IMG/VR virus record: IMGVR_UViG_3300019776_000078
Location: 3,384 to 67,383 of that record
DNA length: 64,000 nt
Strand: one strand, 5' to 3'
Origin: a virus
Both the position numbers and the translations under genes were made by a program. This document shows positions 34,894-60,835 of this stretch, piece by piece. The notes under the pieces are model-generated. The model was not told where the DNA came from. It made no database searches and saw only the letters and a program-made list of their open reading frames with translations. Every line of letters begins with the position of its first letter. The first letter of the stretch is position 1.

Positions 34894-35311
34894 TTTTCCA
34901 TTCCTTGTATTCCCCGTAGATCACTTTGAGCGATCCTTGGGCCTCTATATTTGTTTTTAATTCAGACCTAGATGCAATATTGAGATAGCTAGTTAACCAT
35001 TCAACACAAGCTTCTTCGTTGGTTTCAAACAACAAACCTTTTTCATACAGATAATCCCAGAACTTCCTATCCCGACACAACATACCAGCAAGCTTAACCA
35101 TCTGAGTGCCAGCATATTCGTCTCGGTTAAGTGGTTGTTCATCGTCTCCTAAGCGCACCATTACTACCAAGTACCTAGCGCCCACAAAATCCCGCATCAG
35201 TTCTTCTGGTAGCTCATCTGGATGGATAGCTAAAGACATGACTATGCCATCCTTGGTTTGCTTGAGGGCGACCTTTTTGCCTTCAAACTGACTGGTTTCC
35301 ATTACTTCCAC
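34886..35311 (-). CDS. conserved phage hypothetical protein
   Basis: AGMLCRD..FW...I.SRSELKTN motif; operon packing. Confidence 0.55.
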   Translation of the reverse strand: MEVMETSQFEGKKVALKQTKDGIVMSLAIHPDELPEELMRDFVGARYLVVMVRLGDDEQPLNRDEYAGTQMVKLAGMLCRDRKFWDYLYEKGLLFETNEEACVEWLTSYLNIASRSELKTNIEAQGSLKVIYGEYKEWKND

Positions 35312-35628
35312 CGTCCTGTCGCAGCTAGTTTAATCCGTTGCCAAACAGATAACTCAGATACAGGGGTAGCCACAGTTTGCAGTTCTTCTACAACATTCTT
35401 ATAGGCATCTGTTTCCTTAATCTGAGCAGCCAACGCACCTTGCAATTGCTTGCAGAGCTTTTCCCAATCTACTGGTTTCTCTTTAGGCTTATTCTTAGAG
35501 CCTGCAGGACGTCCACGCTTAGGAAGTTTAGCCTTAGCTGCAGCTTCCAATGGAACCTTATTGGCCTTGGCAAATGCCACCTCAGAAGCGCTTAATGACA
35601 CTCTACGTGGTTTCTTAGTTACTCCCAT
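35302..35628 (-). CDS. hypothetical protein with AT-hook (KRGRP) and coiled coil
   Basis: KRGRPAGSKNK motif. Confidence 0.5.
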   Translation of the reverse strand: MGVTKKPRRVSLSASEVAFAKANKVPLEAAAKAKLPKRGRPAGSKNKPKEKPVDWEKLCKQLQGALAAQIKETDAYKNVVEELQTVATPVSELSVWQRIKLAATGRWK

Positions 35629-35882
35629 GGGTCTTTCTCCTGTGACTTAGGTGCTGCCTCTTGTTTAACAAATGTGTCAATCGCTAGGGATACAAAGCGG
35701 GTACCTGTTTTAGACTCCCGTTTCCAGCCCGATAGCTTAATCTCAATCAAGTCCTCATCATGCTTTTCCATCAAATCCCGCAGATAAGAACGGTCAATCT
35801 TGACGCTGCCAAAATAGTCTGGAGACTTGTCTGACTTACGTACTGTTGATGGGAACAGTGAACCCTTGTTTGGATACTCCAT
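35619..35882 (-). CDS. putative small single-stranded DNA-binding protein
   Basis: GSLF...KSPDYFG...LSGW...FVSL and acidic/aromatic tail (EKDPWE); next to an annealing protein. Confidence 0.6.
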   Translation of the reverse strand: MEYPNKGSLFPSTVRKSDKSPDYFGSVKIDRSYLRDLMEKHDEDLIEIKLSGWKRESKTGTRFVSLAIDTFVKQEAAPKSQEKDPWE

Positions 35883-35885
35883 GTA

Positions 35886-36095
35886 TTACTCCTGTGTTAT
35901 GTGTTGATTAGCGTGAAATTTTTCGTCTGAAAGTTTTGTATGGTCTGGATATACGAGCTGAACAACGCACCAACCACCGCCTCTTGGACTATCCTTTGAC
36001 ATTGTTTCGTAGCGCATGATGGCTGATTCTTTTGATGAATAAGCACCGTCATAAATACCAGTTGCCGTGTCCCAAATAATATAATTTCCTACCAT
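35886..36095 (-). CDS. hypothetical protein
   Basis: ORF in the leftward operon. Confidence 0.45.
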   Translation of the reverse strand: MVGNYIIWDTATGIYDGAYSSKESAIMRYETMSKDSPRGGGWCVVQLVYPDHTKLSDEKFHANQHITQE

Positions 36096-36098
36096 TTC

Positions 36099-36773
36099 TT
36101 ACTCCTTAGTTAAAGACTTCTTAGTTGCGGTAAATTGAGCCATCATTTCTGCATAGGCATCAGGATTCATCTCCTTAACCTTATCAAAGCTAGAACGATT
36201 GACTTTAAAGATGCTAGCGACATCATCTGGCGATGCGGCTAACTGAAGCATGGCATGAAGACCGACTCTCATAGACTCTACAAAGTCTTCTCCCGTAGGT
36301 GTTAGTGTCCACTCACCAACCAGAGGGATCTTCTTGGGTGCTTCTTTTTTGGGTGGCGAGACAACCTTCGGCTCTTGTTGAGTAGCCGTGTTTATCTTGA
36401 CATCTTCACCGAGGTCAGGTGGGAGGTCTTCGCCGTTGTAAATGTATAGACCGATACCGTGCAGTGCTATCGCCTTGGCGAGGCAACGTTGCATAGCGGT
36501 GTTGACAGCAAATGAGTCTGGCTCAGATATGGGCTTATTGCGGTAATCCATAACTGGTAGTTGTGCAGTCCGAGCAATGTCATTGGCAACCACGGTGCAA
36601 AATACCATAACAGATCCGTTTCCCCATCGCTGATATTCTGGGTAAAACCAATGGGCTTTAGGGTCAGCGAGCAGGAGTTGATCGACGGCCCAAGCCCAAG
36701 AAAGGTAAGTAAGTCCATTCTTCTTCTCCGTATATTTAGAGACATCAATCTGTCTCAGTTGTTTGTATTCCAT
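36099..36773 (-). CDS. Sak3/DUF1071-type single-strand annealing protein
   Basis: EKKNGLTYLSWAWA...LPVMDYRN...NTAMQRCLAKAIALHGIGLYIY.GEDLP. Confidence 0.85.
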   Translation of the reverse strand: MEYKQLRQIDVSKYTEKKNGLTYLSWAWAVDQLLLADPKAHWFYPEYQRWGNGSVMVFCTVVANDIARTAQLPVMDYRNKPISEPDSFAVNTAMQRCLAKAIALHGIGLYIYNGEDLPPDLGEDVKINTATQQEPKVVSPPKKEAPKKIPLVGEWTLTPTGEDFVESMRVGLHAMLQLAASPDDVASIFKVNRSSFDKVKEMNPDAYAEMMAQFTATKKSLTKE

Positions 36774-36774
36774 T

Positions 36775-36987
36775 TCAATCCTCTTTGGTTTCTACTTCTA
36801 TTAATTTTTGGGCATAGTGAATCACTTTTCTAAGATCCTCAACACCACCTTTATCTCTCCAGCGTGAGATGTATTTCACAATGTTGCCCTCTAGGTATCC
36901 TAGATTGTTGGCAATGATGTAGTCCCACGGTTGGATTGCGTGTTTCTTATAGTGGTTGCCACCGATCTGATCACCATTTGCGCTCAT
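36775..36987 (-). CDS. DUF3310 (SaV-like) protein
   Basis: GGNHYK..IQPWD...GNIVKY..R...KGGVEDL.K; ATG at 36987. Confidence 0.8.
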   Translation of the reverse strand: MSANGDQIGGNHYKKHAIQPWDYIIANNLGYLEGNIVKYISRWRDKGGVEDLRKVIHYAQKLIEVETKED

Positions 36988-37199
36988 AAACGGGTTACCT
37001 TGTGAGACTTGTGAAGGACCCACTTCTTTCCCATCTTTTTAATGCATTTAGCAATAGCGTCTTCATTGCGTTCACGCATCGCTGCGATGTCCTCATCGGT
37101 CATACAGCTATAGTAGATACTATCTTTAGCTGGTTCCCATTCATGGCTCTTCTTGCCAATAAACTCACGCTCAAAAGCTTTCATCATTTGATTTAACAT
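36984..37199 (-). CDS. hypothetical protein
   Basis: MGKKWVLH C-terminal motif; operon packing. Confidence 0.5.
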   Translation of the reverse strand: MLNQMMKAFEREFIGKKSHEWEPAKDSIYYSCMTDEDIAAMRERNEDAIAKCIKKMGKKWVLHKSHKVTRL

Positions 37200-38072
37200 T
37201 TATTGCTCCTCTAAGTATGTTTGATACTGCTTGCACCATTGACTAACCTGACAGTAGTTAGCACAACGGGTTCTTTCTCCAAGTCGGACTTCAATTGCAT
37301 AGCCCTTCCCAGCTTTTTGTAGTTCATCTTCAGCCTCTTCCTGAGACGAACACACAATCTTTGCCCTTACTCCACCTTCTTTTTTGACGGCATACGTTGT
37401 CGGTTTTTCCCAACATTCTTCCGGTGTACAGGGCGGTATATCTGCTCCTGTTTCCATTGCGAATAAGGCTTCCGAATGGGCGTGAATGCGCTCACGGACA
37501 TATTCTTCACGTCTCTCATAACTCCACAAAGGAATATCAAGAATCGCCACAGGCGCTGCAGGATATCCAGCACGAGTATTAGAATCACGCCGATTCCAGT
37601 CGCGAATAATAGCCACAATCTTGAGAGCAGTGACGGGCGTTTTCTTGACCTTTTCGACCAGCCAAGCATAAATGTTAAGTTGCTCTTCCCATTCTTTCTT
37701 TTCATTCATCACCCCATATACGCCAACGGTTTTGTAATCATTGATCTCGATGCCATCCTGATGGATGATCTGTAAGTCAATTGCCCCAGAGATATTCCAG
37801 CCGTCTAGTTCTGCATGGAGTCGCTCTTCTACTAAATGGTTATCATCTACGCCCTGCTCTAGGATGTGATGGACTGCGCTACCAAATAAAGACCACACCA
37901 TATCCGATGCATCCATCTCAATCTCATCCAAGTGTTGCTTGCGTAGCACCGCAATCTGAGCGCTATTGAGCAGTTCAGTAGCAGATAGATGAGCTGCACC
38001 CTTGCTGTAAGTAGGACGCTCTAATGCGTTGACAATGGTCTGCGGTAGACCAAGCTTGTTAGTTATTTTCAT
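37200..38072 (-). CDS. PD-(D/E)XK exonuclease
   Basis: LSATEL, FGSAVH, ISGAID...INDYKT, QLNIY; C-terminal Cys cluster. Confidence 0.8.
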   Translation of the reverse strand: MKITNKLGLPQTIVNALERPTYSKGAAHLSATELLNSAQIAVLRKQHLDEIEMDASDMVWSLFGSAVHHILEQGVDDNHLVEERLHAELDGWNISGAIDLQIIHQDGIEINDYKTVGVYGVMNEKKEWEEQLNIYAWLVEKVKKTPVTALKIVAIIRDWNRRDSNTRAGYPAAPVAILDIPLWSYERREEYVRERIHAHSEALFAMETGADIPPCTPEECWEKPTTYAVKKEGGVRAKIVCSSQEEAEDELQKAGKGYAIEVRLGERTRCANYCQVSQWCKQYQTYLEEQ

Positions 38073-38226
38073 TTTGTTTTTTAAGCCACCATTTGAGATC
38101 TATCAAAGCAACGATTAAGTCATCCACTACATTGATGGCTGTTTTCCATTGACGCTTAACTAATAGGTGTAAAAGCTTTCTACTACCTATTTGTAATGTA
38201 AGTAAAGTTTCTGAATAGTCAATCAT
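38059..38226 (-). CDS. hypothetical 55-aa protein (absent from ORF track)
   Basis: Manually translated MIDYSETLL...; GAGG RBS; fills the operon gap. Confidence 0.5.
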   Translation of the reverse strand: MIDYSETLLTLQIGSRKLLHLLVKRQWKTAINVVDDLIVALIDLKWWLKKQNENN

Positions 38227-38235
38227 CAATTCCTC

Positions 38236-38532
38236 TTATCTGCTGTAAGCCTGGCGATTGCCGTTGTTATCGTAATAGTTTCTTGTGCCACTAGGGTTTA
38301 TTGTTTCATAACCAATACGGTTACCGCTATTATCGTAAACCCCAGTATTTGAGTAATAGTTGTACTCACTGTTTTTCCAATTGTATGGAGAATTGTTCCA
38401 GTCTTGAGGACTGTTTTGGTAATTGTATTCCGAGTTCTTCCAGTTGTACGGTGAGTTCTCCCAGCTCGTCACTGTCTGGGACTGCGCTGACATAGACACA
38501 GTAATACATAAAATGCTTAATATAGTTTTCAT
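38236..38532 (-). CDS. secreted protein with heptad [WY]xNSxxN repeats
   Basis: Signal-peptide-like N-terminus; WENSPYN-WKNSEYN-YQNSPQD-WNNSPYN-WKNSEYN. Confidence 0.65.
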   Translation of the reverse strand: MKTILSILCITVSMSAQSQTVTSWENSPYNWKNSEYNYQNSPQDWNNSPYNWKNSEYNYYSNTGVYDNSGNRIGYETINPSGTRNYYDNNGNRQAYSR

Positions 38533-38544
38533 GTGTTTTCCTCT

Positions 38545-38751
38545 TCATTTGATGTAATTAATCATACCAGCCAAGTAAAACAATACTGCTACTGCTTCTA
38601 CTAGGAATAGCGGTGTATCTCTTTGGATTAGTCCTGCTATTGTCCATAGTGTACTACCAATCAAACTCAGCACAATATTTAATGGATAAATATTAAAGCT
38701 CGTTAGGAAAATACCACACAAGCAAAGTATTGTGCCGAGCCATTTGATCAT
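38545..38751 (-). CDS. small multi-pass membrane protein
   Basis: Almost entirely hydrophobic, about three TM segments. Confidence 0.55.
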   Translation of the reverse strand: MIKWLGTILCLCGIFLTSFNIYPLNIVLSLIGSTLWTIAGLIQRDTPLFLVEAVAVLFYLAGMINYIK

Positions 38752-39038
38752 TGTTTCTTTCTAAATTGGTTAATGTTATACACATTTTTCTGTGTTCCAT
38801 TACCCACTTTCCAAATGACATGGACATTACCATCAACTACACCCCAGCAGCCTTCAATGTACACTTTGTTGGACCAAGAATAGACTCTGCGTAGACCTTC
38901 ATACACCCTGCCATTTTCTTCGCAAACCCTGTCGGTCAGAGTAATCTCACCACCAGCCTCGTTCATCATCACCCAAGCTTCCGCTTTGGCATTGAAAGCT
39001 AGTAGTAACCCTAATACAAACAACATCTTTTTCATCAT
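38748..39038 (-). CDS. putative secreted protein
   Basis: Signal peptide (KK + hydrophobic + AxA); N.AGG.I.LT...GCW. Confidence 0.55.
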   Translation of the reverse strand: MMKKMLFVLGLLLAFNAKAEAWVMMNEAGGEITLTDRVCEENGRVYEGLRRVYSWSNKVYIEGCWGVVDGNVHVIWKVGNGTQKNVYNINQFRKKQ

Positions 39039-39832
39039 GCGCTCCTTGGTAATTGACCACTAAAGTTATAGGTTCCGGTATGGCTAAAGCTTGCCCAAGG
39101 TGCAGCGTAGACTTTAAAGCCAGCCTGACGTGCGATCTTGCAAAAGTGATAGTCTTCCGATAGTAAACGATTGGATTCCTCGTCAATGCTAGTAGCAAAG
39201 AACTCTGGAATGATTTTGATTTCACGAACGGTATCTACAGCGTGATACATATCATTGGTGTAGGACGGTACTTTATCCTTCAGATCCTCAAAGACCTTGC
39301 GCTTAATCAGCATAAAGCCTGTACCACCATTAGCAATCTCAATTGGTTCATTGATGTTGCCAGTTTTAGACTGTTCACCATGCGCCAGGTTCAATACAAA
39401 CGCTCCTGTATGGAACTGTAAATGCTCTGGGGCAACTCCTTGTTTGACCGCCTCAGAGACCTGAACCCAGTTAATCTCTTTCTTAGGGTAAACCCCACAG
39501 ATGATGTCCTTATCTGCGGAGACCATTCGAGGAATGTCTGGAGGATTAAAAGCGATATCGGCATCAATGAACATCAAATGAGTTGCATCAGACTTTAAAA
39601 AGTCATAGGCCATGCTGTTACGGGCGCGAGTAATTAAAGACTCATTCATCATAAAGCTGTAATACATCTGGATTCCAGCCTGACCGAATGCTCCTACGCA
39701 CTGCATCACCGCTGACGCATACATTCCAGTACACATACCGCCGTACATGGGAGTAGCTACAAATAATTTAGCTCGCACCGGAGTCGGATTGAACTTCATT
39801 TGGGGTTGTTGTTTATCTTTCTTGAAGCTCAT
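39035..39832 (-). CDS. GT-A fold glycosyltransferase-like protein
   Basis: LFVATPMYGG, ESLITRARN, LMFIDADI (DxD), GTGFMLI, LSEDYHFC. Confidence 0.75.
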   Translation of the reverse strand: MSFKKDKQQPQMKFNPTPVRAKLFVATPMYGGMCTGMYASAVMQCVGAFGQAGIQMYYSFMMNESLITRARNSMAYDFLKSDATHLMFIDADIAFNPPDIPRMVSADKDIICGVYPKKEINWVQVSEAVKQGVAPEHLQFHTGAFVLNLAHGEQSKTGNINEPIEIANGGTGFMLIKRKVFEDLKDKVPSYTNDMYHAVDTVREIKIIPEFFATSIDEESNRLLSEDYHFCKIARQAGFKVYAAPWASFSHTGTYNFSGQLPRSA

Positions 39833-40071
39833 TTCTTTTTACCTTTCTTGGGTTCTTCAACTTTTGGTGCGTTTAACGCCATAAGCTCCATAGATAACTT
39901 ATCTAAGTCATCACCATAGCGCTTGAGCATTTCATACAAAGCCCAAGCTACTCCGCTATTAGTATCGTCTGACATAGACTCACCCAATAACGCAGCTACA
40001 CTAGCTAGGCTATCAATCCTGTAGCCAACTTCACCGACTTGATTTGCTTTTTCCCACAGTCCTTCTACCAT
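39829..40071 (-). CDS. hypothetical protein
   Basis: Operon packing. Confidence 0.5.
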   Translation of the reverse strand: MVEGLWEKANQVGEVGYRIDSLASVAALLGESMSDDTNSGVAWALYEMLKRYGDDLDKLSMELMALNAPKVEEPKKGKKK

Positions 40072-40219
40072 TTTTTTCCTCTTTCTGTTTAATGTAATCT
40101 TTCAGGATACTCAGTATCCCAGCCTCTACCAGTACTGCTAAACCTTCTTTATCAAAATTGACTACAGCATCTGCAGATCCATCTTCATATTCCTTAGTGA
40201 TTTCTAAATTAATCTTCAT
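40031..40219 (-). CDS. hypothetical protein (EDGSAD family)
   Basis: E.EDGSA...F..E motif; start uncertain. Confidence 0.5.
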   Translation of the reverse strand: MKINLEITKEYEDGSADAVVNFDKEGLAVLVEAGILSILKDYIKQKEEKNGRRTVGKSKSSR

Positions 40220-40905
40220 TTCTTTCTCCATGGTAAATCGACATATGCATTCTTCATGGCTGCGTTACCTTCTTTAAACATTCCCAATAATCGTTCGGGC
40301 GCTCGGTAATTAACTGTAGCCTCTCCTGTGCATCCAAAGGCAGGCAAAGACTTGCTGGCAGCTTTATAGAATGGTCTATCAGCACCCCATTGCCCGTAGA
40401 AAGTATGCGCCACGCTAACCAGATATTCACGCTTAAAACAATAGCAATTAGTGTCAACAAAATTGAGCAGATGATCGTAAAACGTCGGCCATCGACCGAG
40501 GCTCTCGCAGTCATCATCGCATAGATATTCTCCAGCTTCATTACAGATTCTCCTCAAACTATACGACCACATTAAATCTTTACTTTTTATTTTATTGACC
40601 ATGGTTTCCACATGGTTCGGTTCAAACCAATTATCCTCATCTAAAAATAGGATGTAATCAGCGTTTACCATTAGTGGCATCGCCGCATAGACTCGGTGTC
40701 CATACCAGCCATTACCGCCTACGTTCTCTGGTAATACCATCCACTTAGCACGAAAGTTATACGGTGCATTGCGAATCCTTTGCCAATGCTGTTGACCGTC
40801 CACCACCACTAAATGCTCGGTAGGAATGGTTTGACGCTTAACGCTATCGAGCGCTTTGTGTAAGGTGTCTTTCCCTGTCGTGGGAGTAATAACCATTATC
40901 CGCAT
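40216..40905 (-). CDS. family 2 glycosyltransferase
   Basis: VITPT...ALDSV..QT...LVVVDG; YILFLDEDN (DxD). Confidence 0.85.
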   Translation of the reverse strand: MRIMVITPTTGKDTLHKALDSVKRQTIPTEHLVVVDGQQHWQRIRNAPYNFRAKWMVLPENVGGNGWYGHRVYAAMPLMVNADYILFLDEDNWFEPNHVETMVNKIKSKDLMWSYSLRRICNEAGEYLCDDDCESLGRWPTFYDHLLNFVDTNCYCFKREYLVSVAHTFYGQWGADRPFYKAASKSLPAFGCTGEATVNYRAPERLLGMFKEGNAAMKNAYVDLPWRKK

Positions 40906-41090
40906 TACACTCTCCTTAATTTTTTACATAGTTGTGCTACATCTGGCGGTAAATCTTTTTCAGAGCAACCATATACGGTGCTGGTATCTATCATGCTATA
41001 CAACATGATTCCTCCAATAACCAAAGCTGCACAGACAATGACTTTTAGCATAGTTGTGTCACATTCTCGCAAGACTTGCAGATACTGCAC
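40905..41090 (-). CDS. small membrane-anchored protein
   Basis: One TM segment; likely start at MLKV. Confidence 0.45.
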   Translation of the reverse strand: MQYLQVLRECDTTMLKVIVCAALVIGGIMLYSMIDTSTVYGCSEKDLPPDVAQLCKKLRRV

Positions 41091-41908
41091 TTGTTAAATT
41101 CTGGTGATTCATTTATTGCAATCAGGTCTTGTAAGGGTTTACCCTGCATAATTTCTTCATACGATTGTGTAAGTAAATTACCAATGACATGCTTGAGATC
41201 ATAGTCCATACAACAGAGGACAACTGAACCATCAGGCAGTAGAACATTGCGGTCGTAGAATGGAGTAGATCGGCAAGTCAATGCAAAGTCGTTGCGTGGA
41301 GTAATATTAATGTTAGTTTGCCCACCGATCTGCTCTACATTTAAACTATCAGCCCTTGTATGTCCTTGCCAGCTAGGGAGCCTGCCAATAATATGTTGCA
41401 GGGATGGATGCACAAACCCACTACCATCCATTGTCATCGCCCCAATCGGCAGCTCTAAAGTCATTACCATCTCCAAAGCATTCATCCATTCCTGGCTTAA
41501 CTTCCAACCTTTCATATTGCTATTGGCATCAGGTAGATGGAGCATAAATACTTTGACTTGGTTCTTATGCTCTTCTAGTACTTTCTTAACACGGGCGGGG
41601 TCTGTCATGCCGTACAGGGTTGTATAGATGGCAACATCAAATCCCATGTATATAACCTCTTCTAGCATCGAAGTACAGTCTGGGTTAGCCCAAGGTTCAG
41701 ACATCCCAGAAAAATCAATACGGGTGTTTCTAGGCAGTTTTACCAGCATTGTGGTCAGATCCCTTTGGCTCATGTACTTAGTGCCTTCTCCGTACTCGGT
41801 ACGTAGATTCTCTTGGGGGCAGAATGTACACATCAGAGGACAGCCAATCATCGTGGTTAGCTCCATGACTGGCCCATCGGTATGGACGATGCCGTATTTC
41901 TCTCTCAT
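41045..41908 (-). CDS. radical SAM protein with SPASM/twitch domain
   Basis: CPLMCTFC (CxxxCxxC); SGMSEP; C...DGSVVLCCMD...IGNL...C..C. Confidence 0.9.
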   Translation of the reverse strand: MREKYGIVHTDGPVMELTTMIGCPLMCTFCPQENLRTEYGEGTKYMSQRDLTTMLVKLPRNTRIDFSGMSEPWANPDCTSMLEEVIYMGFDVAIYTTLYGMTDPARVKKVLEEHKNQVKVFMLHLPDANSNMKGWKLSQEWMNALEMVMTLELPIGAMTMDGSGFVHPSLQHIIGRLPSWQGHTRADSLNVEQIGGQTNINITPRNDFALTCRSTPFYDRNVLLPDGSVVLCCMDYDLKHVIGNLLTQSYEEIMQGKPLQDLIAINESPEFNKCSICKSCENVTQLC

Positions 41909-42631
41909 TTATTCTCCGTACATGGATTTTGGAAGCGGGCGATCAGGCTTATCCGCTACATTGGGTTGATCTAATGGGTGAGGAAAGCTCGTTACAAACC
42001 CTAAGTCTGGGCTTCTGTCCTTACGCAACAGAGTGATTTCAAAGGTGGTTGGTAACGGTATTTCATCCGCTAAAAGAAAAGAACAATTGTTGTTGGGGTG
42101 TAAATGAACAACATGGAAAAAGTCTAATAACTTATCAAAAAATACCTTGATACATCCCCAAGTAATCGGACTAAACCACTGCTCTACATTATGCATTTCC
42201 ATCACGATAATTCTAAAACGTCTGATGGTGTGCATATGTGCAGCTAAAATCGTTTCATACTCAGAGCCTTCAATGTCCATCTGTAAAATCCAGTCGCCTA
42301 AAAATCCACCGCAACGGTTTGTCCATTGATCTAAAGTAATGTGATCCTCATCCTTGACGCCACCAAGAAACTTCTTCTCAAAGGATGCAACCTCAATTCC
42401 GTTAGGTGGCCCATCTACCGATGCATCAGCCAAGTGGGACAAGATGCCACGCTCAAGCAAGTCTTTCTCAAAGGTCGCATTATCGGCTACGCCAGGAGAG
42501 AAGCAAGCCGTAATGCCGTCTAAATCATTCGGCACTAAGTATCCACCATCGTTATCGCCACCAAAACGAATCAGTTCATATTTGGTTTTTACTGGCCGCA
42601 GGTCTTTGAGTAGTTTTTCTAATGGGGTCAT
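41909..42631 (-). CDS. FkbM-like SAM-dependent methyltransferase
   Basis: RFGGDNDGGY, SPGV, LQMDIEGSEY, VMEMH, HLHPNN. Confidence 0.8.
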   Translation of the reverse strand: MTPLEKLLKDLRPVKTKYELIRFGGDNDGGYLVPNDLDGITACFSPGVADNATFEKDLLERGILSHLADASVDGPPNGIEVASFEKKFLGGVKDEDHITLDQWTNRCGGFLGDWILQMDIEGSEYETILAAHMHTIRRFRIIVMEMHNVEQWFSPITWGCIKVFFDKLLDFFHVVHLHPNNNCSFLLADEIPLPTTFEITLLRKDRSPDLGFVTSFPHPLDQPNVADKPDRPLPKSMYGE

Positions 42632-42634
42632 TGT

Positions 42635-43135
42635 TTAAGCCTCTGTGTAATAAGCGATACCGTTTCTTGCATGGATCAAAATGGATTCAGCATGACGTGG
42701 CAACTCCGCTAAGGAGATGTTAATGGGATACTGCTCAGGTGTTTCATCAAGAGAGAAGTACGCTTTTGGAACATTGAAGTCTTTGACGGCTTTATGCACC
42801 ACTTGATGATGTGGATGACCATATTCCCCTTCTTCATTGTGCGTCAGAATAAAGTCATAATGAATAGCGACTTTACGGATAGCACGGATAGCATCATCCT
42901 CTGCCCAAGTCTTCAAAGATAATGACCCCAAGTCACGACCATGATCTTTAAAACCTAAGAACTTGGTTTTGATACCACGCTTACGCCAGTAACGGCTAAT
43001 CTCTCTAGCCCGTTTGTTCCACCAATGCTGTGTCAGATAGACAATGCTCCACTCATAGTCTGGATGGGCGTCCATATACGCGCTGGCAAAGATCACGCAG
43101 TCATCGGGATGGGCAACGGCAACTAACGCCTTCAC
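42635..43135 (-). CDS. PIG-L/LmbE family N-acetylglucosaminyl deacetylase
   Basis: AHPDD and GEYGHPHH motifs. Confidence 0.8.
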   Translation of the reverse strand: MKALVAVAHPDDCVIFASAYMDAHPDYEWSIVYLTQHWWNKRAREISRYWRKRGIKTKFLGFKDHGRDLGSLSLKTWAEDDAIRAIRKVAIHYDFILTHNEEGEYGHPHHQVVHKAVKDFNVPKAYFSLDETPEQYPINISLAELPRHAESILIHARNGIAYYTEA

Positions 43136-43208
43136 TTACATTTTCTCCATAGCCATGTCAATACAACGGCATTCATTATAAGAAACACTACAATCCAATC
43201 GCCCTCAG

Positions 43209-43505
43209 TCATTTCCCACTAGCCTTTCTTAGTATTGCAAACACATCATCACGCAGTTTGTTTTCTTCAGGTATATCAGAATCATTTTCATAGTTTTTAA
43301 ATTCATCAGTCCATTTAGCAATCAATCTTTCAATAATGTTTATTATTTCCTCATCTGTTATTGTCTTTGCTGCCCCAGCATCAAACCCATATTGCCAGCC
43401 CATTTCAATGAGCAATAGTTCGTCTTCTGTATAGGCTTCAGTGCGTAATTCGCCATCTTCTAACCATTGACCAGCTTTCCACTCTTCAAATGTTTTGTAT
43501 ATCAT
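43209..43505 (-). CDS. hypothetical protein (TDEEI...AILRKA family)
   Basis: Shares terminal motifs with the adjacent ORF. Confidence 0.55.
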   Translation of the reverse strand: MIYKTFEEWKAGQWLEDGELRTEAYTEDELLLIEMGWQYGFDAGAAKTITDEEIINIIERLIAKWTDEFKNYENDSDIPEENKLRDDVFAILRKASGK

Positions 43506-43729
43506 TTCTCTTGTGCCTTTCTTAGTATTGCTCTAGCAAAATCATGTATTTCGTATAGTCTTTTTTCACCAAACGGCTCGCTAACTTCTTTGTATACCTG
43601 ACTTATTTCCTCATCTGTTAATGTCTTTGCTGGATGGGTGTAGAGTGGAATACCACGACCACTTACATTAAGGTCATAGACATCGCTATGTTCTAGGTAA
43701 TCCATCCACGCTACTGGTTCATTGTTCAT
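43502..43729 (-). CDS. hypothetical protein (EPVAW...PLYT...LTDEEI...FARAILRKA family)
   Basis: Common small phage ORF motif set. Confidence 0.6.
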   Translation of the reverse strand: MNNEPVAWMDYLEHSDVYDLNVSGRGIPLYTHPAKTLTDEEISQVYKEVSEPFGEKRLYEIHDFARAILRKAQEK

Positions 43730-44583
43730 TTCACTATGCTCCGTACAAATTCAATGGCGTTATCTAGACTTGGTGCTTCCCACAATAGCGGTCTATTGTA
43801 CATATCCTCATAAATCTCTTTGCTCTCATCAATAGCCTGAATGGTTGTGACGAACCAGTCCATGTCTTTAGTATTCATGTAGTTAAGATAAGCGCCCTCA
43901 TGGAAGTCGCAGTCCACAGATATAGTGCCGCTATAGATAGGTATAGTACCGCCCGCATAAGCGTCTAATAACTTCTCAGTTACATAGCCGTCATAGACCG
44001 AGTTCTCTGGGCATAAGCAGAACTTGTAATGCTTGAGAACATCAAACTTAGACTGACGCAAGGCACGGTTAAACATATTGCCATAGCCATGTAATTGTTT
44101 GTAACGGGAAATGGAGTTAAATAGATTGACTCTTAATCCCTCTGGGTTGCCAGCGATCATAGCGCAGAACTCTTTTTTCTCTTGCCAGTCTAACTTACGT
44201 TTCTGTGTTAGCGGTGCAATCGGAATCAACGGTTCATAGCCGTGGTTGTGCATATTCTCTTTGCGAGGACGCTGCTCAAAGCCGGGCCATGCTAGGCGAA
44301 AATACCATAAAGGAAGACGATGGTTTCTGCCACCATAACTGTCCCAATCAAAAGAAAGAGAATGACTGTAATTGATAAAGTTAGGACGTATATTTTCCCC
44401 GATAAAGGCAAGCGTTTTCGCAGGGTCGGTATGGACATTTCCAAATACTGAGGTAACAACAAGATCAGCCTCGTGTGGATTGCTAGTATAAGTGACGCCA
44501 TCGAAAGCAGTATTGAAAAAAAAGTCCAAAAAGTCACCATCAAATGCACCCTCCCAAAAGTTAACTACACAGATTGTTTTCAT
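43726..44583 (-). CDS. family 10 glycosyltransferase (alpha-1,3/4-fucosyltransferase-like)
   Basis: YKFCLCPENS..DGYVTEKL.DA..GGTIPIY.G signature; GEN.RPNF. Confidence 0.85.
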   Translation of the reverse strand: MKTICVVNFWEGAFDGDFLDFFFNTAFDGVTYTSNPHEADLVVTSVFGNVHTDPAKTLAFIGENIRPNFINYSHSLSFDWDSYGGRNHRLPLWYFRLAWPGFEQRPRKENMHNHGYEPLIPIAPLTQKRKLDWQEKKEFCAMIAGNPEGLRVNLFNSISRYKQLHGYGNMFNRALRQSKFDVLKHYKFCLCPENSVYDGYVTEKLLDAYAGGTIPIYSGTISVDCDFHEGAYLNYMNTKDMDWFVTTIQAIDESKEIYEDMYNRPLLWEAPSLDNAIEFVRSIVK

Positions 44584-45647: not shown

Positions 45648-46013
45648 ATGTCAGGACTTACCCTTACTCTTAACTATCCAGTCAGTGTGAATGCATATTG
45701 GCTGGCATCAGGTAAGCGCCGTTATATTTCTAAACGTGGTGTTGCTTTTAAGAAACACGTTGCAGAAATGTATGCACAATCAAATCACAAGGGATTTGGA
45801 GACAAACCAGTGGAGTTAAATGTGTTGTTGTTTCCTCGCGACAATCGCCTCATGGACATCGACAATATGCTCAAGTGCTTGGGAGATTCATTACAAGATG
45901 CGGGCGTGTTTGATGACGATCAACAGGTCTGGAAGATCACTATAGAGCGTGGCCAAAAGATTAAAGGTGGCGGATGCCAGGTAACTATTACCGAATACTT
46001 TCATGCGGCATGA
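45648..46013 (+). CDS. rusA: RusA-like Holliday junction resolvase
   Basis: PVSVNAYW...PRDNRLMDIDN..K...DSL..AGVFDDD.QV. Confidence 0.85.
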   Translation: MSGLTLTLNYPVSVNAYWLASGKRRYISKRGVAFKKHVAEMYAQSNHKGFGDKPVELNVLLFPRDNRLMDIDNMLKCLGDSLQDAGVFDDDQQVWKITIERGQKIKGGGCQVTITEYFHAA

Positions 46014-46192: not shown

Positions 46193-46229
46193 ATGTACAT
46201 TTATACAGTCCTATAAGGTACAATCGGTT

Positions 46230-46316
46230 CCAATACCTCAGCAGGTATTTTCATGTGTAATCCTCCTCTTTACACTTGGCCTTAGGGAGCGTGAGTACGT
46301 CCGCTCCCATCTTTTT
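46230..46316 (+). ncRNA. candidate three-hairpin sRNA with anti-Shine-Dalgarno loop
   Basis: AATACCT/AGGTATT; GTGTAA-TCCTCCTCT-TTACAC; GGGAGCG/CGCTCCC followed by T-run; TACAAT upstream. Confidence 0.55.
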
Positions 46317-46319
46317 GTG

Positions 46320-46340
46320 TATAATTGTTGCATTGCAACA
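46320..46340 (+). promoter_or_regulatory. -10 box TATAAT followed by palindrome TGTTGCA-T-TGCAACA (PhaR-like operator)
   Basis: Perfect 7-1-7 inverted repeat at 46326-46340. Confidence 0.6.
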
Positions 46341-46359
46341 TTATCTTAAGGAGATAACC

Positions 46360-46494
46360 ATGTTTGAATTTGATAAGCAGTACAAAGAATCAATGAAGAA
46401 GTTTGAAGAAGTAACCGAAGCAATCAAGCAAGCAAACGAGTTCTGGGTGAACGCCGTATTGTCTAGCTGGAAGTCTTTCTACAAGACTAAGTAA
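46360..46494 (+). CDS. 44-aa amphipathic helical (phasin-like?) protein
   Basis: AAGGAG RBS, own promoter and terminator; MFEFDKQYKESMKKFEEVTEAIKQANEFWVNAVLSSWKSFYKTK. Confidence 0.65.
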   Translation: MFEFDKQYKESMKKFEEVTEAIKQANEFWVNAVLSSWKSFYKTK

Positions 46495-46513
46495 TAAACG
46501 GCCTTAGGTCGCA

Positions 46514-46545
46514 GGGGTGAGCAGAAACTGCTTGCCCCTTTTTTT
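46514..46545 (+). terminator. rho-independent terminator
   Basis: GGGGTGAGCAG-AAA-CTGCTTGCCCC followed by T7. Confidence 0.85.
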
Positions 46546-46609
46546 ATTTGTGCTACACTAAAAACACAGAAGGTGACTTTGGTCGGTTACCTTGTGTATA
46601 ATTGCCACC

Positions 46610-46714
46610 AAAGCCCTGTACTACATGGGGTCTGAATAGTTTTCTTATGTTTGGTTGGTGGCCGTTAAACATAAGCGAATGACCAAAATCAGACTCTATG
46701 TTCTACAGGGTTTT
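46610..46714 (+). ncRNA. c4-like antisense RNA
   Basis: Nested stems AAAGCCCTGTA/TACAGGGTTTT, CATGGGGTCTGA/TCAGACTCTATG and CTTATGTTT/AAACATAAG; unpaired TTGGTGGC and GACCAA are complementary to upstream GCCACCAA and TTGGTC. Confidence 0.7.
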
Positions 46715-47054
46715 ACCTTTCTGTGTGGTCTATGTGCAGGGAGGGGAAACCGCCGATCATCATAGGCCGAGAGACCAAGGACGTCCAACAGGGTCAAGCG
46801 TGGGTGGTAGTAGATAGAGCGCGTTGGGGGGAATCGAAAGATTTATAAGTCTGTCTAATGTGGATGTCGCCGAAGTGAACTCAGAGTGATGCCACCCCAC
46901 GAACCTAGTTACGACTGGGTTGGGGGGTGCTGTGTCATCAACCGAGTGAATCTAGAGTGATACGAGTACTACTATATGAAGTGTGATACAAGCGGGTCTG
47001 ATGGGATACGAGTAAAAGCGGGGAAGTTGTAAATAAAATAAAGAGGAGAAGATA

Positions 47055-47381
47055 ATGAGGAATAGACACGCAGAACTAATTCATGCTTGGGCAGAAGGCG
47101 CCGAGATTGAGCGCAGAGAAACCTATTGTAGATATCAAATGAATCAAGAGCCAATCATTGTCAGCGAAGAGTGGTTGCCATGCCCTAATCCATCATGGGT
47201 ATGGAACGAGGAATATCGCATTAAACCATCTCCAGTTCCAGATTATGTAAGCTATCTTTGCTTAAATTATCCGCACAAAGACCAGTGGTTTGAGTCAACT
47301 AAACCGTATCAACACGATTGCATTAAGATCACTCGAAACTTTAAAACATGGAAAATAACATCAGTGGAGATTGTCGGATGA
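47055..47381 (+). CDS. conserved phage hypothetical protein
   Basis: HAELIHAWAEGAEIE...PSW....EYRIKP; strong RBS. Confidence 0.65.
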   Translation: MRNRHAELIHAWAEGAEIERRETYCRYQMNQEPIIVSEEWLPCPNPSWVWNEEYRIKPSPVPDYVSYLCLNYPHKDQWFESTKPYQHDCIKITRNFKTWKITSVEIVG

Positions 47382-47563
47382 ACTACAGAGAAGAGATAAA
47401 GAAACAAGTTGGGATAATCCCTGATTCAATCAAACGGGGTTCGGTGCAACAATCTATACGTTGGAAAGAACAAGCCATGCAGTCCCTAAGGGTAGCCAAT
47501 AACCCAAAAGCGGGCGAGTATGAATTGAAGTTAGCATTAAACGCATTAACCAAATACAAATAA
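47378..47563 (+). CDS. hypothetical protein
   Basis: ATGA overlap start (MNYREE). Confidence 0.5.
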   Translation: MNYREEIKKQVGIIPDSIKRGSVQQSIRWKEQAMQSLRVANNPKAGEYELKLALNALTKYK

Positions 47564-47572
47564 GAGGAAACC

Positions 47573-48394
47573 ATGAAACTTTCACAGATTACACTTGATC
47601 CTAAACTGATGATGCGTGTTGCGCTCAATGACGAGATCATTGACGAGTATGCACAAGCGATGTTGGACGGCGATAAATTTCCGCCCATCGTGATTTTCAA
47701 TGACGGCGATAACAACTACTTAGTTGAGGGATTCAAACGCTACTACGCCTACAAAAAGTGCGGCATAGAACTAGTGGATGCCGACACTCGCATGGGAACT
47801 TACGATGATGCATTTGATTATGCGTTGACCGTAGCAAACCGCTTACATGGAGAACGCTATACGCCCGAAGACAAGCGTTATCAATTGCAGATGGCGTTAG
47901 ATGTGCCGCGCTATGCTAACAAATCAGACCGCGAACTTGCCCGCATTCTTAAAGTCTCCAACACTTTCGTATCCAAGATGCGTAAAGCAGAAGGTAAACA
48001 ACCGAAGGTGATTGAGACCACCCGTAATGGTAAGACTGTTAAAGTAAAGAACAACAAACCTGAGATAGAAGATGAACCAGAACCAATCCTTGAACAAGAA
48101 GACAAGATCCACGAAATTGCCGTGGAAATGCAGGGCGTTATCGAGGAGAACGAAAAGTTACAGAATCGTTTGGCTGTGGCTGCGATGGAGGCTACGGATG
48201 AAGAGAAACAGTTGGCAAAAAGTCTTCTCGAAGATAAAGACGAGAAGATTAAACAACTCGAAGCGGATCTCCGTGTATACAAAGCGTCCAGTGATACATT
48301 CCAAGCTCAACTAGCAGAAGCCATCAAACAATGCAAGTATTGGGAACGCCGTGCCAAGAAAGCAGAAAATATGCTCAATAAACAAGCAGCGTAG
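47573..48394 (+). CDS. ParB/Srx-like N-terminal domain protein with HTH and coiled coil
   Basis: FPPIVIF...YLVEGFKRY.A; SDRELARILKVSNTFVSKMR HTH. Confidence 0.75.
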   Translation: MKLSQITLDPKLMMRVALNDEIIDEYAQAMLDGDKFPPIVIFNDGDNNYLVEGFKRYYAYKKCGIELVDADTRMGTYDDAFDYALTVANRLHGERYTPEDKRYQLQMALDVPRYANKSDRELARILKVSNTFVSKMRKAEGKQPKVIETTRNGKTVKVKNNKPEIEDEPEPILEQEDKIHEIAVEMQGVIEENEKLQNRLAVAAMEATDEEKQLAKSLLEDKDEKIKQLEADLRVYKASSDTFQAQLAEAIKQCKYWERRAKKAENMLNKQAA

Positions 48395-48441
48395 GGTTAA
48401 TCCTAGTGTTTGTAAAAGTAGTAAAAGAGTAAGATTTTCAC

Positions 48442-48550
48442 ATGGGGGGCGCAGTCGGCTCGGCGACTTAAAATAGCCTGTATCCTTTTGGTTTAGAAAA
48501 GTGCTTCACGTACACTTGCCCCCCATCCCCGATAGCAGGCGGTATCCTGC
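48442..48550 (+). ncRNA. candidate structured cis element upstream of the helicase
   Basis: ATGGGGGGC/GCCCCCCAT closing stem enclosing AGTCG/CGACT and CTTTT/AAAAG hairpins; then GCAGG/CCTGC hairpin. Confidence 0.45.
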
Positions 48551-48568
48551 ATAGTTACAGAGGATAAG

Positions 48569-50053
48569 ATGTTAGAGCTAAGGCCACATCAGGAAGAAGT
48601 TGTCGAGAAACTCAGAGAAGGTTTCAGGCAAGGACACAGATGCCAGTTGCTATATGCACCAACTGGATTCGGAAAAACAGAAGTAGCGATGGCGATTATG
48701 AAAGCCGTTGCACAGAAGTACAAGAAGTGTGCGATGGTGCTAGACCGTATCGTTTTAGTAGACCAAACCAGCCGCCGCTTAACTAAGTATGGGATCGAAC
48801 ATGGCGTCATGCAAGCAGGCCATTGGAGATACAGACCATTCGAGCATATCCAAGTCTGCTCTGCTCAAACCCTAGAACGCAGAGAAGTATTCCCTGAGAT
48901 TGATCTTCTCATCGTTGATGAGTGCCATATCACCCGCCGTGGTGTCGTTAAATTTATTAGGGAAAACCCTCAGATCAAAGTTATTGGTCTGACCGCTACT
49001 CCGTTTACCAAAGGGCTTGGAGATATTTACTCCCATGTAGTCGGTGCTACCCCTACTGGAGACCTAATTGATAAGGGCTGGCTAGTTCCACTCAAGATTT
49101 ATGTTGCCAAAGAGATTGACATGACGGGCGTTAAGAAGCGGGCTGGTGAGTGGGCGGCAGAAGATGTCCAAGAACGGGGTTTAAAGATCGTTGGAGACGT
49201 TGTTCGCAGTTGGCATGAGAAGACCCATGAAATCTTTGGAAAACCCGTCAAAACCATCGTATTCTGCGCTGGCGTTGAACACGGCAGAGCATTGGTAGAA
49301 CAGTTTGCTAAAGCAGGATACAACTTTGTCTCTATTTCCTATAAGGAAGACGATCAATATAAGAAGGACATGATCGAAGAGTTCAGCAAACCGGATACTG
49401 AGATTCATGGATTGATTGCGACTGACATCCTGACCCGTGGTTTTGATGTTACCGATGTGATGATTGGCGTATCAGCCCGTCCATTCTCCAAGTCATTCAG
49501 TTCCCATGTTCAGCAGATGGGGCGTGTCATGCGTACCCATGAAGGTAAAGAGTTCGGTGTTTGGTTAGATCATTCTGGAAACTTTCTGAGATTTAGAAAG
49601 GATTGGGATCGTGTTTTCTATGAGGGCGTATCTCAACTCAAAGAAGATTCGATTGAGAGAACCAAGAAAGAACCGACAGAAAAGGAAAAGAAAGAGTCCG
49701 TCTGTCCTGCCTGTAAGGTCTTATGGACTTTCCCTGACAATAAGTGCGGTGCTTGTGGCTACGTCAAGATCAGTAAAAAACACTTACAGATGGTCAATGG
49801 TGAGCTTCTGGAGCTGGCCGCAACCAATCAGCAATCGTTCAATCACAACAAGCATTTCTATTCTGAGTTGGTGTACTACGCCAGACAGAAGGGATTTAAG
49901 GATGGCTGGGCAAAGCACAAATACAAAGAGAAGTTCGGTGTCTTTCCTAAAGCCATTCCCGTAGAAGTTCGGCCTACTTCTGTTACCACTCTCAAGTGGA
50001 TCAAGAGTAGATTTATAGCGTATAACAAATCAAAAGTGAGACTAGCAGCATGA
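48569..50053 (+). CDS. superfamily 2 DNA helicase
   Basis: LRPHQ, APTGFGKT, DECH, GLTATP, LTRGFD, QMGRVMR; C-terminal Zn ribbon. Confidence 0.9.
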   Translation: MLELRPHQEEVVEKLREGFRQGHRCQLLYAPTGFGKTEVAMAIMKAVAQKYKKCAMVLDRIVLVDQTSRRLTKYGIEHGVMQAGHWRYRPFEHIQVCSAQTLERREVFPEIDLLIVDECHITRRGVVKFIRENPQIKVIGLTATPFTKGLGDIYSHVVGATPTGDLIDKGWLVPLKIYVAKEIDMTGVKKRAGEWAAEDVQERGLKIVGDVVRSWHEKTHEIFGKPVKTIVFCAGVEHGRALVEQFAKAGYNFVSISYKEDDQYKKDMIEEFSKPDTEIHGLIATDILTRGFDVTDVMIGVSARPFSKSFSSHVQQMGRVMRTHEGKEFGVWLDHSGNFLRFRKDWDRVFYEGVSQLKEDSIERTKKEPTEKEKKESVCPACKVLWTFPDNKCGACGYVKISKKHLQMVNGELLELAATNQQSFNHNKHFYSELVYYARQKGFKDGWAKHKYKEKFGVFPKAIPVEVRPTSVTTLKWIKSRFIAYNKSKVRLAA

Positions 50054-50226
50054 GAAATAGAGAACTAAATGAGTACTTCAATATGACCCAACAAGAGATC
50101 GGCGAGGCGATGGACTTAACCAGAGAGAATACTTCTGCGATTGAGAAGAGTGCGCTCAAGAAACTGAGAAAGCTGTTAGAAGAGAAGGGCTATAAAGCAT
50201 CGGACTTCATAGGTGGAATGGCATGA
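50050..50226 (+). CDS. sigma70 region-4-like HTH protein, 58 aa (absent from ORF track)
   Basis: Manually translated ...MTQQEIGEAMDLTRENTSAIEKSALKKLRK... Confidence 0.7.
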   Translation: MRNRELNEYFNMTQQEIGEAMDLTRENTSAIEKSALKKLRKLLEEKGYKASDFIGGMA

Positions 50227-51038
50227 GTTTTCAGTCATTTGCCGAGCAACATGGGCTAATCATCGATCATTTGGTCTATGACAAATGGACTAGGGTTCCT
50301 ACCCTAGACCATCCTAAGAAAAAGAATGGTTCTTATATCTATGATGGTAAGTCGGGCGCGGTTCTGAATTGGGCTGTGCATGAGAAAGCAATCGTATGGA
50401 AAGGAGAAGCAAAAAATGATCCCTTATACAGAGCTAAGGTACACAAAGCCAAGCAGGATACTGAGAAGCGCAATCAGGAGGCGGCATCCAAAGCTGGCTG
50501 GATTCTTAAGAAAGCGGTTAAATCTACTCATCTTTACTTAGCTAAGAAAGGTTTCCCTGATGAGCAAGCATTGGTCTGGGATGGGTTGTTGGTGATTCCG
50601 ATGCGGATCAACGAGGAGTTGGCTGGCCTCCAGCTGATCGATGCGGAGGGGAGTAAGAAGTTTCTATCCGGTCAAAAGAACAAGGGCGCAGTAGCAATCT
50701 TTGATAACAAGGGAGTCCCGATTCTGTGTGAAGGATACGCTACTGCCATGTCCATTAGACGGGCTTTAAAAGCCGTTAAAACACGCTACAAGATCATTGT
50801 TTGTTTTTCGGCTAGTAACCTTAAGCATTGTTCTCAAGAGCATCCTGACTGCATTATCGTTGCTGATAACGACAAGGTTGGTATCAGGGTAGCCAAGGAA
50901 TCAGGAAGGCCGTTCTTTGTGCCTCCTAATCACAAGGAAGATTTTAACGACTATGAGCTAAGAGTAGGTGCTGAAAAGGCGGGAAAAGCCCTCATTGGAG
51001 TCGGTCTGAAGCAGGCTGAACAAATACAGACTCAGTAA
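50223..51038 (+). CDS. primase-like Toprim protein
   Basis: YLAKKG, LVIPM, LQLID..G.KKFL.G, CEGYATA, IVADND, DFND. Confidence 0.8.
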   Translation: MSFQSFAEQHGLIIDHLVYDKWTRVPTLDHPKKKNGSYIYDGKSGAVLNWAVHEKAIVWKGEAKNDPLYRAKVHKAKQDTEKRNQEAASKAGWILKKAVKSTHLYLAKKGFPDEQALVWDGLLVIPMRINEELAGLQLIDAEGSKKFLSGQKNKGAVAIFDNKGVPILCEGYATAMSIRRALKAVKTRYKIIVCFSASNLKHCSQEHPDCIIVADNDKVGIRVAKESGRPFFVPPNHKEDFNDYELRVGAEKAGKALIGVGLKQAEQIQTQ

Positions 51039-60641: not shown

Positions 60642-60835
60642 TGCTAGACAAAGCACTAGCTCATCTAACGAATCAAATAGATGAGAAGGTAGCACGGTTA
60701 CATGAAGCATTAGGTACGGGTGTCGCGAAAGACTACTCAGAGTACCAAAAGATGTGTGGTGAAGTTCAAGGTCTATTGACCGCACGTCTCTATATTGCAG
60801 ACCTTGCACGAAACTTAGAGGACTCCGATGAGTGA
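60638..60835 (+). CDS. conserved small head-region protein
   Basis: DY.EY...CG..QGL motif. Confidence 0.6.
   Translation: MMLDKALAHLTNQIDEKVARLHEALGTGVAKDYSEYQKMCGEVQGLLTARLYIADLARNLEDSDE

Follow-up and report, generated by a model that had tools for sequence, protein, structure and literature searches.

What is the function of a long, imperfect hairpin at the head of a phage replication operon, when its loops are complementary to sequences lying just upstream of it? This question is raised by a locus in the window, i.e., the whole stretch of viral DNA analysed here, which covers 64 kb of a 67,383-bp record with direct terminal repeats that is rated 100% complete. A first-pass annotation of the letters had described the locus as a c4-like antisense RNA switch, possibly serving immunity or superinfection control. 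The sequence features which it named are all present at the positions it gave them. The element is predicted to be a conserved structured RNA of about 165 bases at the start of the phage replication-gene transcript. Most likely, this RNA switches its shape, or recognises its own copies, to control the replication genes.

The genomic setting of the element is summarised in Table 1. A terminator-like hairpin closes the upstream unit, indicating that the leader begins its own transcription unit, and the approximately 500 nt between this hairpin and the 108-aa ORF contain no credible ORF. Elsewhere in the genome, a Sak-like annealing protein, an exonuclease, terminase subunits and a portal protein are encoded; a GroES-like co-chaperonin ORF (60828-61241) adjoins the portal and terminase genes. 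Two further observations concern a GT10-type alpha-1,3-fucosyltransferase-like protein (43726-44583, - strand; Pfam Glyco_transf_10, 5.6e-14, and FucT_N, 2.9e-07) and a second glycosyltransferase-like ORF at 39035-39832. The sequencing runs listed (n = 11) are all DNA runs of aquatic or freshwater origin, and a blastn comparison of 46200-47200 with a phage collection gave no match.

Table 1. Features of the element and its surroundings in the window (positions are those of the window)
Feature	Positions	Strand	Remarks
RusA-like resolvase	45648-46013		5' of the element
44-aa ORF	46360-46494		upstream unit
Intrinsic-terminator-like hairpin and T-run	46513-46549	+	12-pair stem, then TTTTTTTATTT
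P_up, extended -10-like box TG-c-TACACT	46551-46559	+	predicted start at ~46565-46567
P1, 5' strand, ACACAGA	46564-46570	+	pairs with TCTGTGT (UCUGUGU), 46720-46726
H1, small hairpin	46570-46593	+	AAGGTGAC / TTTGGTCG / GTTACCTT = AAGGUGAC / UUUGGUCG / GUUACCUU
Patch a, UUUGGUC	46578-46584	+	H1 loop; pairs with a'
P_in, second -10-like hexamer TATAAT	46597-46602	+	in the linker; scored as sigma-70-like, 10/12
Patch b, GCCACCAA	46604-46611	+	single-stranded linker, directly 5' of H2
H2, long imperfect hairpin	46610-46714	+	lower stem 46610-35/46689-714, upper stem ~46640-53/46663-76
Patch b', TTGGTGGC = UUGGUGGC	46655-46662	+	H2 apical loop
Patch a', GACCAAA	46681-46687	+	H2 3' internal loop; unpaired in MFE and centroid folds
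U-rich tail after H2	46711-46719	+	UUUUACCUU in the window, GGGGUUUUUUCUUUU in most relatives; terminator-tail-like
P1, 3' strand, UCUGUGU	46720-46726	+
Remaining untranslated leader	46727-47054	+	window-type module, ends at the first ORF (ATG 47055)
Downstream operon	47055-51038	+	108-aa ORF, 71-aa ORF, ParB-like, SF2 helicase, Toprim primase
ParB-like protein	47573-48394	+
SF2 helicase	48569-50053	+
Toprim primase	50223-51038	+

Read as RNA of the + strand, positions 46564-46726 fold into a closing helix (P1), a small hairpin (H1) and a 105-nt hairpin (H2) ending in a U-run. The fold of 46604-46726 reaches -46.3 kcal/mol on this strand (z -5.5), a value which 0 of 200 shuffled sequences equalled, so the long hairpin of the first-pass annotation is borne out; the - strand of the same stretch attains only -35.6 kcal/mol (z -3.5), leaving the + strand better by 10.7 kcal/mol. 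A repeat search recovered the inverted repeats 46610-35/46689-714, 46563-84/46681-702 and 46591-611/46655-75. The 3' arm of H2 is complementary to its own 5' arm and also to a stretch upstream of H2. A standard terminator scan did not call H2, whose stem and loop are above the limits of that tool. The P1 helix joins the 5' end to CUGC beyond the U-run. Such a helix would make sense only in a read-through RNA, and it is just as compatible with a stable domain built on a three-way junction. The closing helix and H1 had been regarded as mutually exclusive; the pairing of the ends was confirmed, whereas strict exclusivity was not, as their overlap is limited to 1-4 nt in the window and relatives have the two next to each other; they are thus compatible within a three-way junction.

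The conservation of this architecture was examined in relatives. Relatives of the helicase, together with two pattern scans of viral and metagenome contigs, yielded 21 distinct copies, and a covariance model built from them (R1) added two, giving 23 distinct members of what is referred to here as class I; in genome contigs, the exact class-I pattern was found in 0 stretches. All 23 members share the same gene order, namely RusA, the element, the leader, a small 'REEIKKQ' ORF, the ParB-like gene and the helicase gene, and in each of them (23/23) GGG and a T-run directly follow H2. The element of the window has the features that R1 describes, i.e., P1, H1 and H2, the a/a' and b/b' patches, the U-run and a location ahead of the replication operon; its model score over 46559-46731 is 135.1 bits (E 2e-30), the lowest among the 21 members. 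A small protein encoded within H2 was considered as well and discarded, since members differ by 1-3-nt indels within the candidate frame.

In the model-fitted alignment of the 21 sequences, 97.4% of cells in the nested structure are paired and 13 pairs are changed on both sides. None of 500 shuffles reached this level, and partners slid out of register pair at 40-52%. H1 contributes strongly, with five of its seven pairs changed on both sides, and P1 is a 5-bp helix (GCAGA/UCUGC) with 93.3% of cells paired, one of its pairs being GC in 16 and AU in 4 sequences. H2 contains invariant G-U pairs (columns 72/151, 84/129 and 87/126 of alignment A6), which indicate that the + strand is the RNA strand. 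Moreover, its stems show 0.06-0.14 differences per column and are far more conserved than pairing alone needs. The earlier reading of the element as a + strand RNA that belongs to the replication-operon leader is supported.

The most distinctive property of the element is the relationship between its loops and the sequence upstream of H2. The a/a' and b/b' patches vary between members and stay matched within each member, and many patch pairs are changed on both sides, in class I as well as in the second class described below. The a/a' types include UUUGGUC/GACCAAA (in the window), UUUGGAC/GUCCAAA, UUGGAAG/CUUCCAA, UUGGCC/GGCCAA and UGGGGA/UCCCCA. The b/b' type of the window is GCCACCAA/UUGGUGGC, forming 11 bp with the flanks included (-14.3 kcal/mol), and the others include CCACGAA/UUCGUGG, GGAUC/GAUCC, CGGGCAA/UUGCCCG and GAGACCA/UGGUCUC. 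Among 21 near-identical scaffolds, 14 different b' cores and 15 different a'/b' combinations were counted. The types have been reshuffled: L004 and L022 share b/b' and differ in a/a'. In L021, the patches pair with a G-U wobble (UUGGUC with GGCCAA). This wobble and the invariant G-U pairs in H2 point to pairing of RNA rather than to DNA sites.

The preference of the loops for their own upstream patches was quantified by duplex energies in the 21 sequences. For a/a', the mean was -9.89 kcal/mol in cognate versus -6.50 kcal/mol in non-cognate combinations, and for b/b' it was -12.79 versus -7.24 kcal/mol; the cognate mean was reached by 0 of 10000 permutations in either case, in statistics that ignore relatedness. 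The cognate partner is best or tied best in its row in 17/21 sequences for b/b' and in only 5/21 for a/a'; types are common to several members, and longer a' segments bind broadly. The first-pass annotation would have failed had the complementarity not been conserved; covariation shows that it is kept. Patch b differs by 0.575 per column, as compared with 0.49-0.61 in unconstrained flanks, i.e., it is only as variable as its surroundings, which leaves diversifying selection without support.

Formation of both long-range pairings requires a rearrangement of the fold whose cost was estimated. When a/a' and b/b' are forced, two short hairpins replace the lower stem of H2, and the resulting structure lies a median of 6.5 kcal/mol above an MFE of about -50 (range 0.6-14.8); the alternative fold of the window is 14.4 kcal/mol worse than its MFE. 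Outside a/a' and b/b', the extended alternative helix offers no testable covariation, as its columns hardly vary. Downstream of the element, a similar preference was absent. Within 440 nt in 17 sequences, b' gave -13.34 with cognate versus -13.61 with non-cognate leaders (3874/5000 permutations as good), and a' gave -7.75 versus -7.74 (2479/5000). The loops have no preference for their own downstream 440 nt, which argues against a target like a2/b2 of c4 or seqC of P4 in that region.

Further insight came from the sequence that follows the element. RF02932 (Betaproteobacteria-1) lies directly 3' of it in 11/11 class-I relatives tested, with scores of 85-98 bits, and scores of up to 102 bits occur directly behind the element among relatives. 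This RNA occupies, among others, 942-1064 in L002, 5339-5463 in L017 and 2522-2643 in L005, where the long hairpin is missing. The window itself has no match to RF02932 (model threshold 49.4 bits). Its downstream leader is 78.7% identical to that of L028 over 46575-46955, and its segment 46727-47054 folds with a z of only -1.6. L012 and L028 carry the same element before different downstream leaders, that of L012 being Betaproteobacteria-1, so the element can be separated from what follows, as a 5' module whose boundary falls just behind CUGC. Betaproteobacteria-1 resembles the element in that it occupies the same leader, immediately 3' of it; it differs in being a separate module that excludes the element and often occurs without it.

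A pattern derived from Betaproteobacteria-1 was found in at least 120 viral contig stretches, and 14 weak full-length matches to R1 just 5' of this RNA led to a second class of switches. Class II has another primary sequence and the same plan as class I. From the 5' end, it consists of a -10-like TATACT, an H1 of the form GCAG-[8-nt loop]-CUGC, a linker and a hairpin of about 88 nt, whose apical loop measures 11 nt and whose 3' internal loop measures 7 nt; GGGGUUUUUCUAUUUCUGC follows. In a plain MAFFT alignment of 16 members, 98.2% of the whole structure is paired, with 20 compensated pairs (0/500 shuffles; slid partners 36-55%). The a/a' contact between the H1 loop and the 3' internal loop has 99.1% of cells paired and 6/7 pairs changed on both sides.

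A sequence-blind parse extended this picture. A hairpin of at least 70 nt that ends at a T-run is present in 49 of the 107 distinct upstream regions of Betaproteobacteria-1 among the matches listed. The loops of the 39 hairpins outside class I prefer their own upstream sequence (-8.37 vs -5.53 and -8.05 vs -4.39), with 0/10000 permutations each in statistics that ignore relatedness. The remaining upstream regions contain a promoter-like box directly before Betaproteobacteria-1, or coding region. In L005, a helicase relative with 70% identity, positions 2450-2520 hold only a 6-bp hairpin (CCUCAC/GUGGGG) and a U-run, with all four patches absent; judged by its sequence, this arrangement would be a minimal form of the module.

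Several other observations were made around these leaders. Betaproteobacteria-1 is sometimes located behind a gene in high-GC contigs. In many of its contigs (e.g., L054, L055, L074 22-267, L083 8004-8249), the DNA just upstream of the leader ends in AATTTGGCCTGA, interpreted on visual inspection as the end of a small ORF (...LIWPEL) and missing from the phage group of the window. In relatives such as L004, L006, L017 and L022, a conserved hairpin 3' of Betaproteobacteria-1 is flanked by two direct repeats, each about 10 nt long (CCA-x ... CCACCA-x) and located approximately 130-230 nt 3' of the element, which vary in concert from phage to phage. Being direct repeats, they are unable to pair with one another and hence resemble sites for a sequence-specific protein; they look like iterons or sites of the ParB-like protein. 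The window has repeats of its own, namely GTGAAyTCwAGAGTGAT at 46874 and 46945, and GATACGAGTA at 46959 and 47005. Two switch copies in G003, a 44-kb 'complete' record behind L074 and L083, were set aside as evidence for orthogonal specificity. This record has a class-II switch at each end, with differing patches, and its positions 1 to ~8300 are colinear with 35134-44384 at 76-93% identity; it is probably a wrap-around assembly of a shorter genome, joining two strain variants, rather than a two-copy genome.

Two promoter-like boxes accompany the class-I element. The first, P_up, appears as TGnTAnAnT 6-7 nt 5' of [G/A]CAG in 19/23 members, the other four having TGTTGTAAAT. Its invariant positions correspond to T-12, A-11, A-9 and T-7, with the TG, and it is probably a promoter. 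The second, P_in, has the form TAnnAT 8-11 nt 5' of H2 in 23/23 members, with TG at -15/-14 in 17/23. A transcript from P_in would start at the base of H2, without a and most of b. An exact 13-mer, TTGTGTATAATTG, occurs twice, 277 nt apart, at 46315-46327 before the 44-aa ORF and at 46592-46604 in the linker of the element, and it looks like a shared promoter box. The P_in box is not conserved in class II, so that a separate promoter for the 'regulator' cannot be general.

Taken together, these features allow a mechanism to be proposed, to which roughly an even chance of being correct is assigned: a modular leader switch, or attenuator, preceding the ParB-like/helicase/primase operon and set by RNA-RNA pairing within the same strand. 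Transcription would begin at about 46566, and the RNA would fold into P1, H1 and H2, followed by the U-run; in this fold, patches a, b, b' and a' would all be unpaired. Since b' would emerge from the polymerase while the 3' arm of H2 has yet to be transcribed, b/b', and then a/a', could form first. These pairings would hold the 3' arm away from the 5' arm, the terminator-like hairpin would be incomplete at the U-run, and read-through into the ParB-like, helicase and primase genes would follow. If a and b were occupied by something else, H2 would fold locally and transcription would stop at the U-run. The likeliest occupant would be a second H2 RNA whose a' and b' loops are free, supplied by terminated or processed leaders or, in class I, by the internal promoter-like box. 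The switch would thereby restrain replication-gene dosage by negative feedback that is addressed through specific sequences. Of these steps, the direction of switching and the decision between cis and trans action are the least certain. An attenuator is favoured by the conserved boxes, the U-run in 23/23 members and the cheap alternative folds.

Other readings of the same pairings deserve consideration. It is conceivable, though rather improbable, that a/a' and b/b' are permanent tertiary contacts, forming a double pseudoknot or kissing dimers or multimers, with a role other than attenuation. Possible roles are the organisation of an origin or primer RNA or a protein scaffold, and the element and the leader module might then form one large RNA. 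P1 closes the domain as in a folded unit, the H2 stems are conserved beyond the needs of pairing, and the element is joined to Betaproteobacteria-1 in all 11 relatives tested. Phage-associated 'ornate' RNAs are said to oligomerise through kissing loops. Covarying direct repeats, similar to protein sites, follow Betaproteobacteria-1. Large 'ornate' RNAs associated with phages are known (bioRxiv 10.1101/2024.12.08.627333). However, b adjoins the foot of a hairpin of about 40 bp and has to reach the loop at its far end, so a contact within one molecule requires the hairpin to bend back sharply at the internal loop. Phages can also do without the module, which is missing from L005 and from many Betaproteobacteria-1 leaders, and permanent contacts leave the U-run exactly after the hairpin without explanation.

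The model of the first-pass annotation, taken strictly, is an unlikely one. It holds that processing or termination releases H2 as a stable small RNA of approximately 100 nt which acts purely in trans, silencing the replication operon of incoming genomes with matching a and b patches, and so provides immunity or superinfection exclusion like c4 of P1/P7 and CI of P4. The four patches are all exposed as unpaired loop or linker sequence, a feature of antisense recognition systems too, and the number and reshuffling of patch combinations (15 in 21 scaffolds) would suit specificity in trans, as would the -10-like box of class I, from which an RNA without a and b would arise. The replication genes of P4 are controlled in such a way (PMC4825925). 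Against this model, every RNA from P_up would bear its own a and b, competing with the target in trans; no covarying downstream target lies within 440 nt; and a genome-wide duplex scan with a' and b' for further targets gave only chance-like matches.

Family searches and gene content also speak against that model. Rfam gave 0 matches in the whole window at the gathering score. At E<=10, 46200-47200 and 46715-46960 showed no C4-type family, the region giving only chance matches of miRNA type, and at E<=5 there was none in 5100-5800 of the relative L017; the Infernal-type comparison with the C4, c4-2 and c4-a1b1 models that the annotation had suggested thus produced no match. As for immunity, PF00589, PF00239, PF00717 and PF13614 were found in 0/3 complete element-bearing genomes (G000, G001 and G002), with positive controls, and a scan of 30 window proteins revealed no integrase, S24 repressor or ParA. 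With no tyrosine or serine recombinase, S24 or ParA in the three genomes, 'immunity' is not the natural frame; control of timing or dosage in lytic growth, or control between co-infecting kin, fits better than lysogenic immunity.

The weakest reading, in which the repeats are operator half-sites or an origin cruciform and the covariation reflects a protein specificity changed at all sites, can appeal to a and b overlapping the -35 and start region of the internal promoter-like box and to the adjoining replication genes, but it is very improbable, given the strand asymmetry of the fold (10.7 kcal/mol in favour of +), the invariant G-U pairs in the stems, the wobble in the patches of L021 where identical DNA sites would be expected, and 14 b' variants in close relatives with no matching variable DNA-binding gene adjoining.

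The proposed leader switch can be compared with several known systems. CI RNA (seqB) of the satellite phage P4 originates in the replication-operon leader; by pairing with seqA on its upstream side and with seqC on its downstream side, it causes premature termination (PMC4825925). Both are same-strand regulators in the untranslated leader of a replication (primase-helicase) operon, and in both a patch 5' of a structured RNA segment is matched by complementary sequence within that segment. Unlike CI, the element uses two separate patches (a and b) instead of one, its hairpin itself carries the U-run, no seqC-like downstream target was found in 440 nt, and there is no sequence or covariance-model similarity. 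The phages also differ from P4, those with the element having genomes of 65-67 kb with terminal repeats and no lysogeny genes in the three complete ones. On the best reading of these analogies, CI-seqA would be the nearest functional analogue, and the element would represent a new RNA class.

c4 is an antisense RNA that controls icd and ant (PMC8198154). The element resembles it in having two short patches of a structured RNA that are complementary to two patches of the same transcript, with upstream copies. An upstream a1/b1 layout of the c4 target copies was reportedly described by Citron and Schuster in 1990, and the a and b patches upstream of H2, covarying with a' and b', would be its counterpart. 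The earlier designation as a c4-like switch is consequently retained as regards the upstream logic, like that of a1/b1 or seqA, and abandoned as regards membership in the C4 family and a covarying downstream target within 440 nt. In contrast to c4, the element has no Rfam match, no target at a downstream ribosome-binding site and neither icd nor ant, the downstream genes being those of replication. H2 is 105 nt in length, whereas c4 RNA is about 77 nt.

A single promoter gives rise to the short and read-through isoforms of Gifsy-1 IsrK, the short one acting in trans on its long counterpart (PMC4825925). IsrK differs from the element by activating the translation of a downstream ORF, by its association with Hfq and by its prophage origin, and no similarity was detected between the two. 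The dosage of replication genes, the quantity which the proposed switch would control, is also what is controlled in plasmids pT181 and pIP501, whose rep genes are subject to antisense-driven transcriptional attenuation. In their leaders, a terminator competes with an upstream pairing, and an RNA bound to the upstream segment forces termination; the countertranscripts are produced from the opposite strand. In the element, by contrast, both partners of each pairing lie on one strand, and there is no conserved antisense promoter.

The structured RNA class described here is absent from Rfam 15, and its covariation, which is unusually clear, includes the two long-range pairings of the hairpin loops with patches upstream. 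Neither c4-a1b1 nor Betaproteobacteria-1 appears in the main text of Weinberg 2017; its supplements may describe both, which could bear on novelty. In addition, the orphan Betaproteobacteria-1 RNA gains a context as the leader of phage replication modules. The address patches might be reprogrammed by design, and the element would then be useful as an orthogonal regulator.

A more far-reaching possibility, speculative and unlikely by our own estimate, is that the element mediates addressable RNA self-recognition in virulent freshwater phages, where a hairpin RNA released by termination or processing would report genome copy number or kin to each nascent leader with the same a/b address and throttle the replication genes in trans. 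If so, the patches, which change freely yet always match, would sort co-infecting phages into specificity groups akin to incompatibility groups, and lytic viruses would have an equivalent of plasmid copy control made of RNA alone. In a bolder variant, the same contacts would build RNA-only dimers or multimers. If, on the other hand, the leader switch works as proposed, it would represent RNA-only control of replication-gene dosage in phages that show no lysogeny genes.
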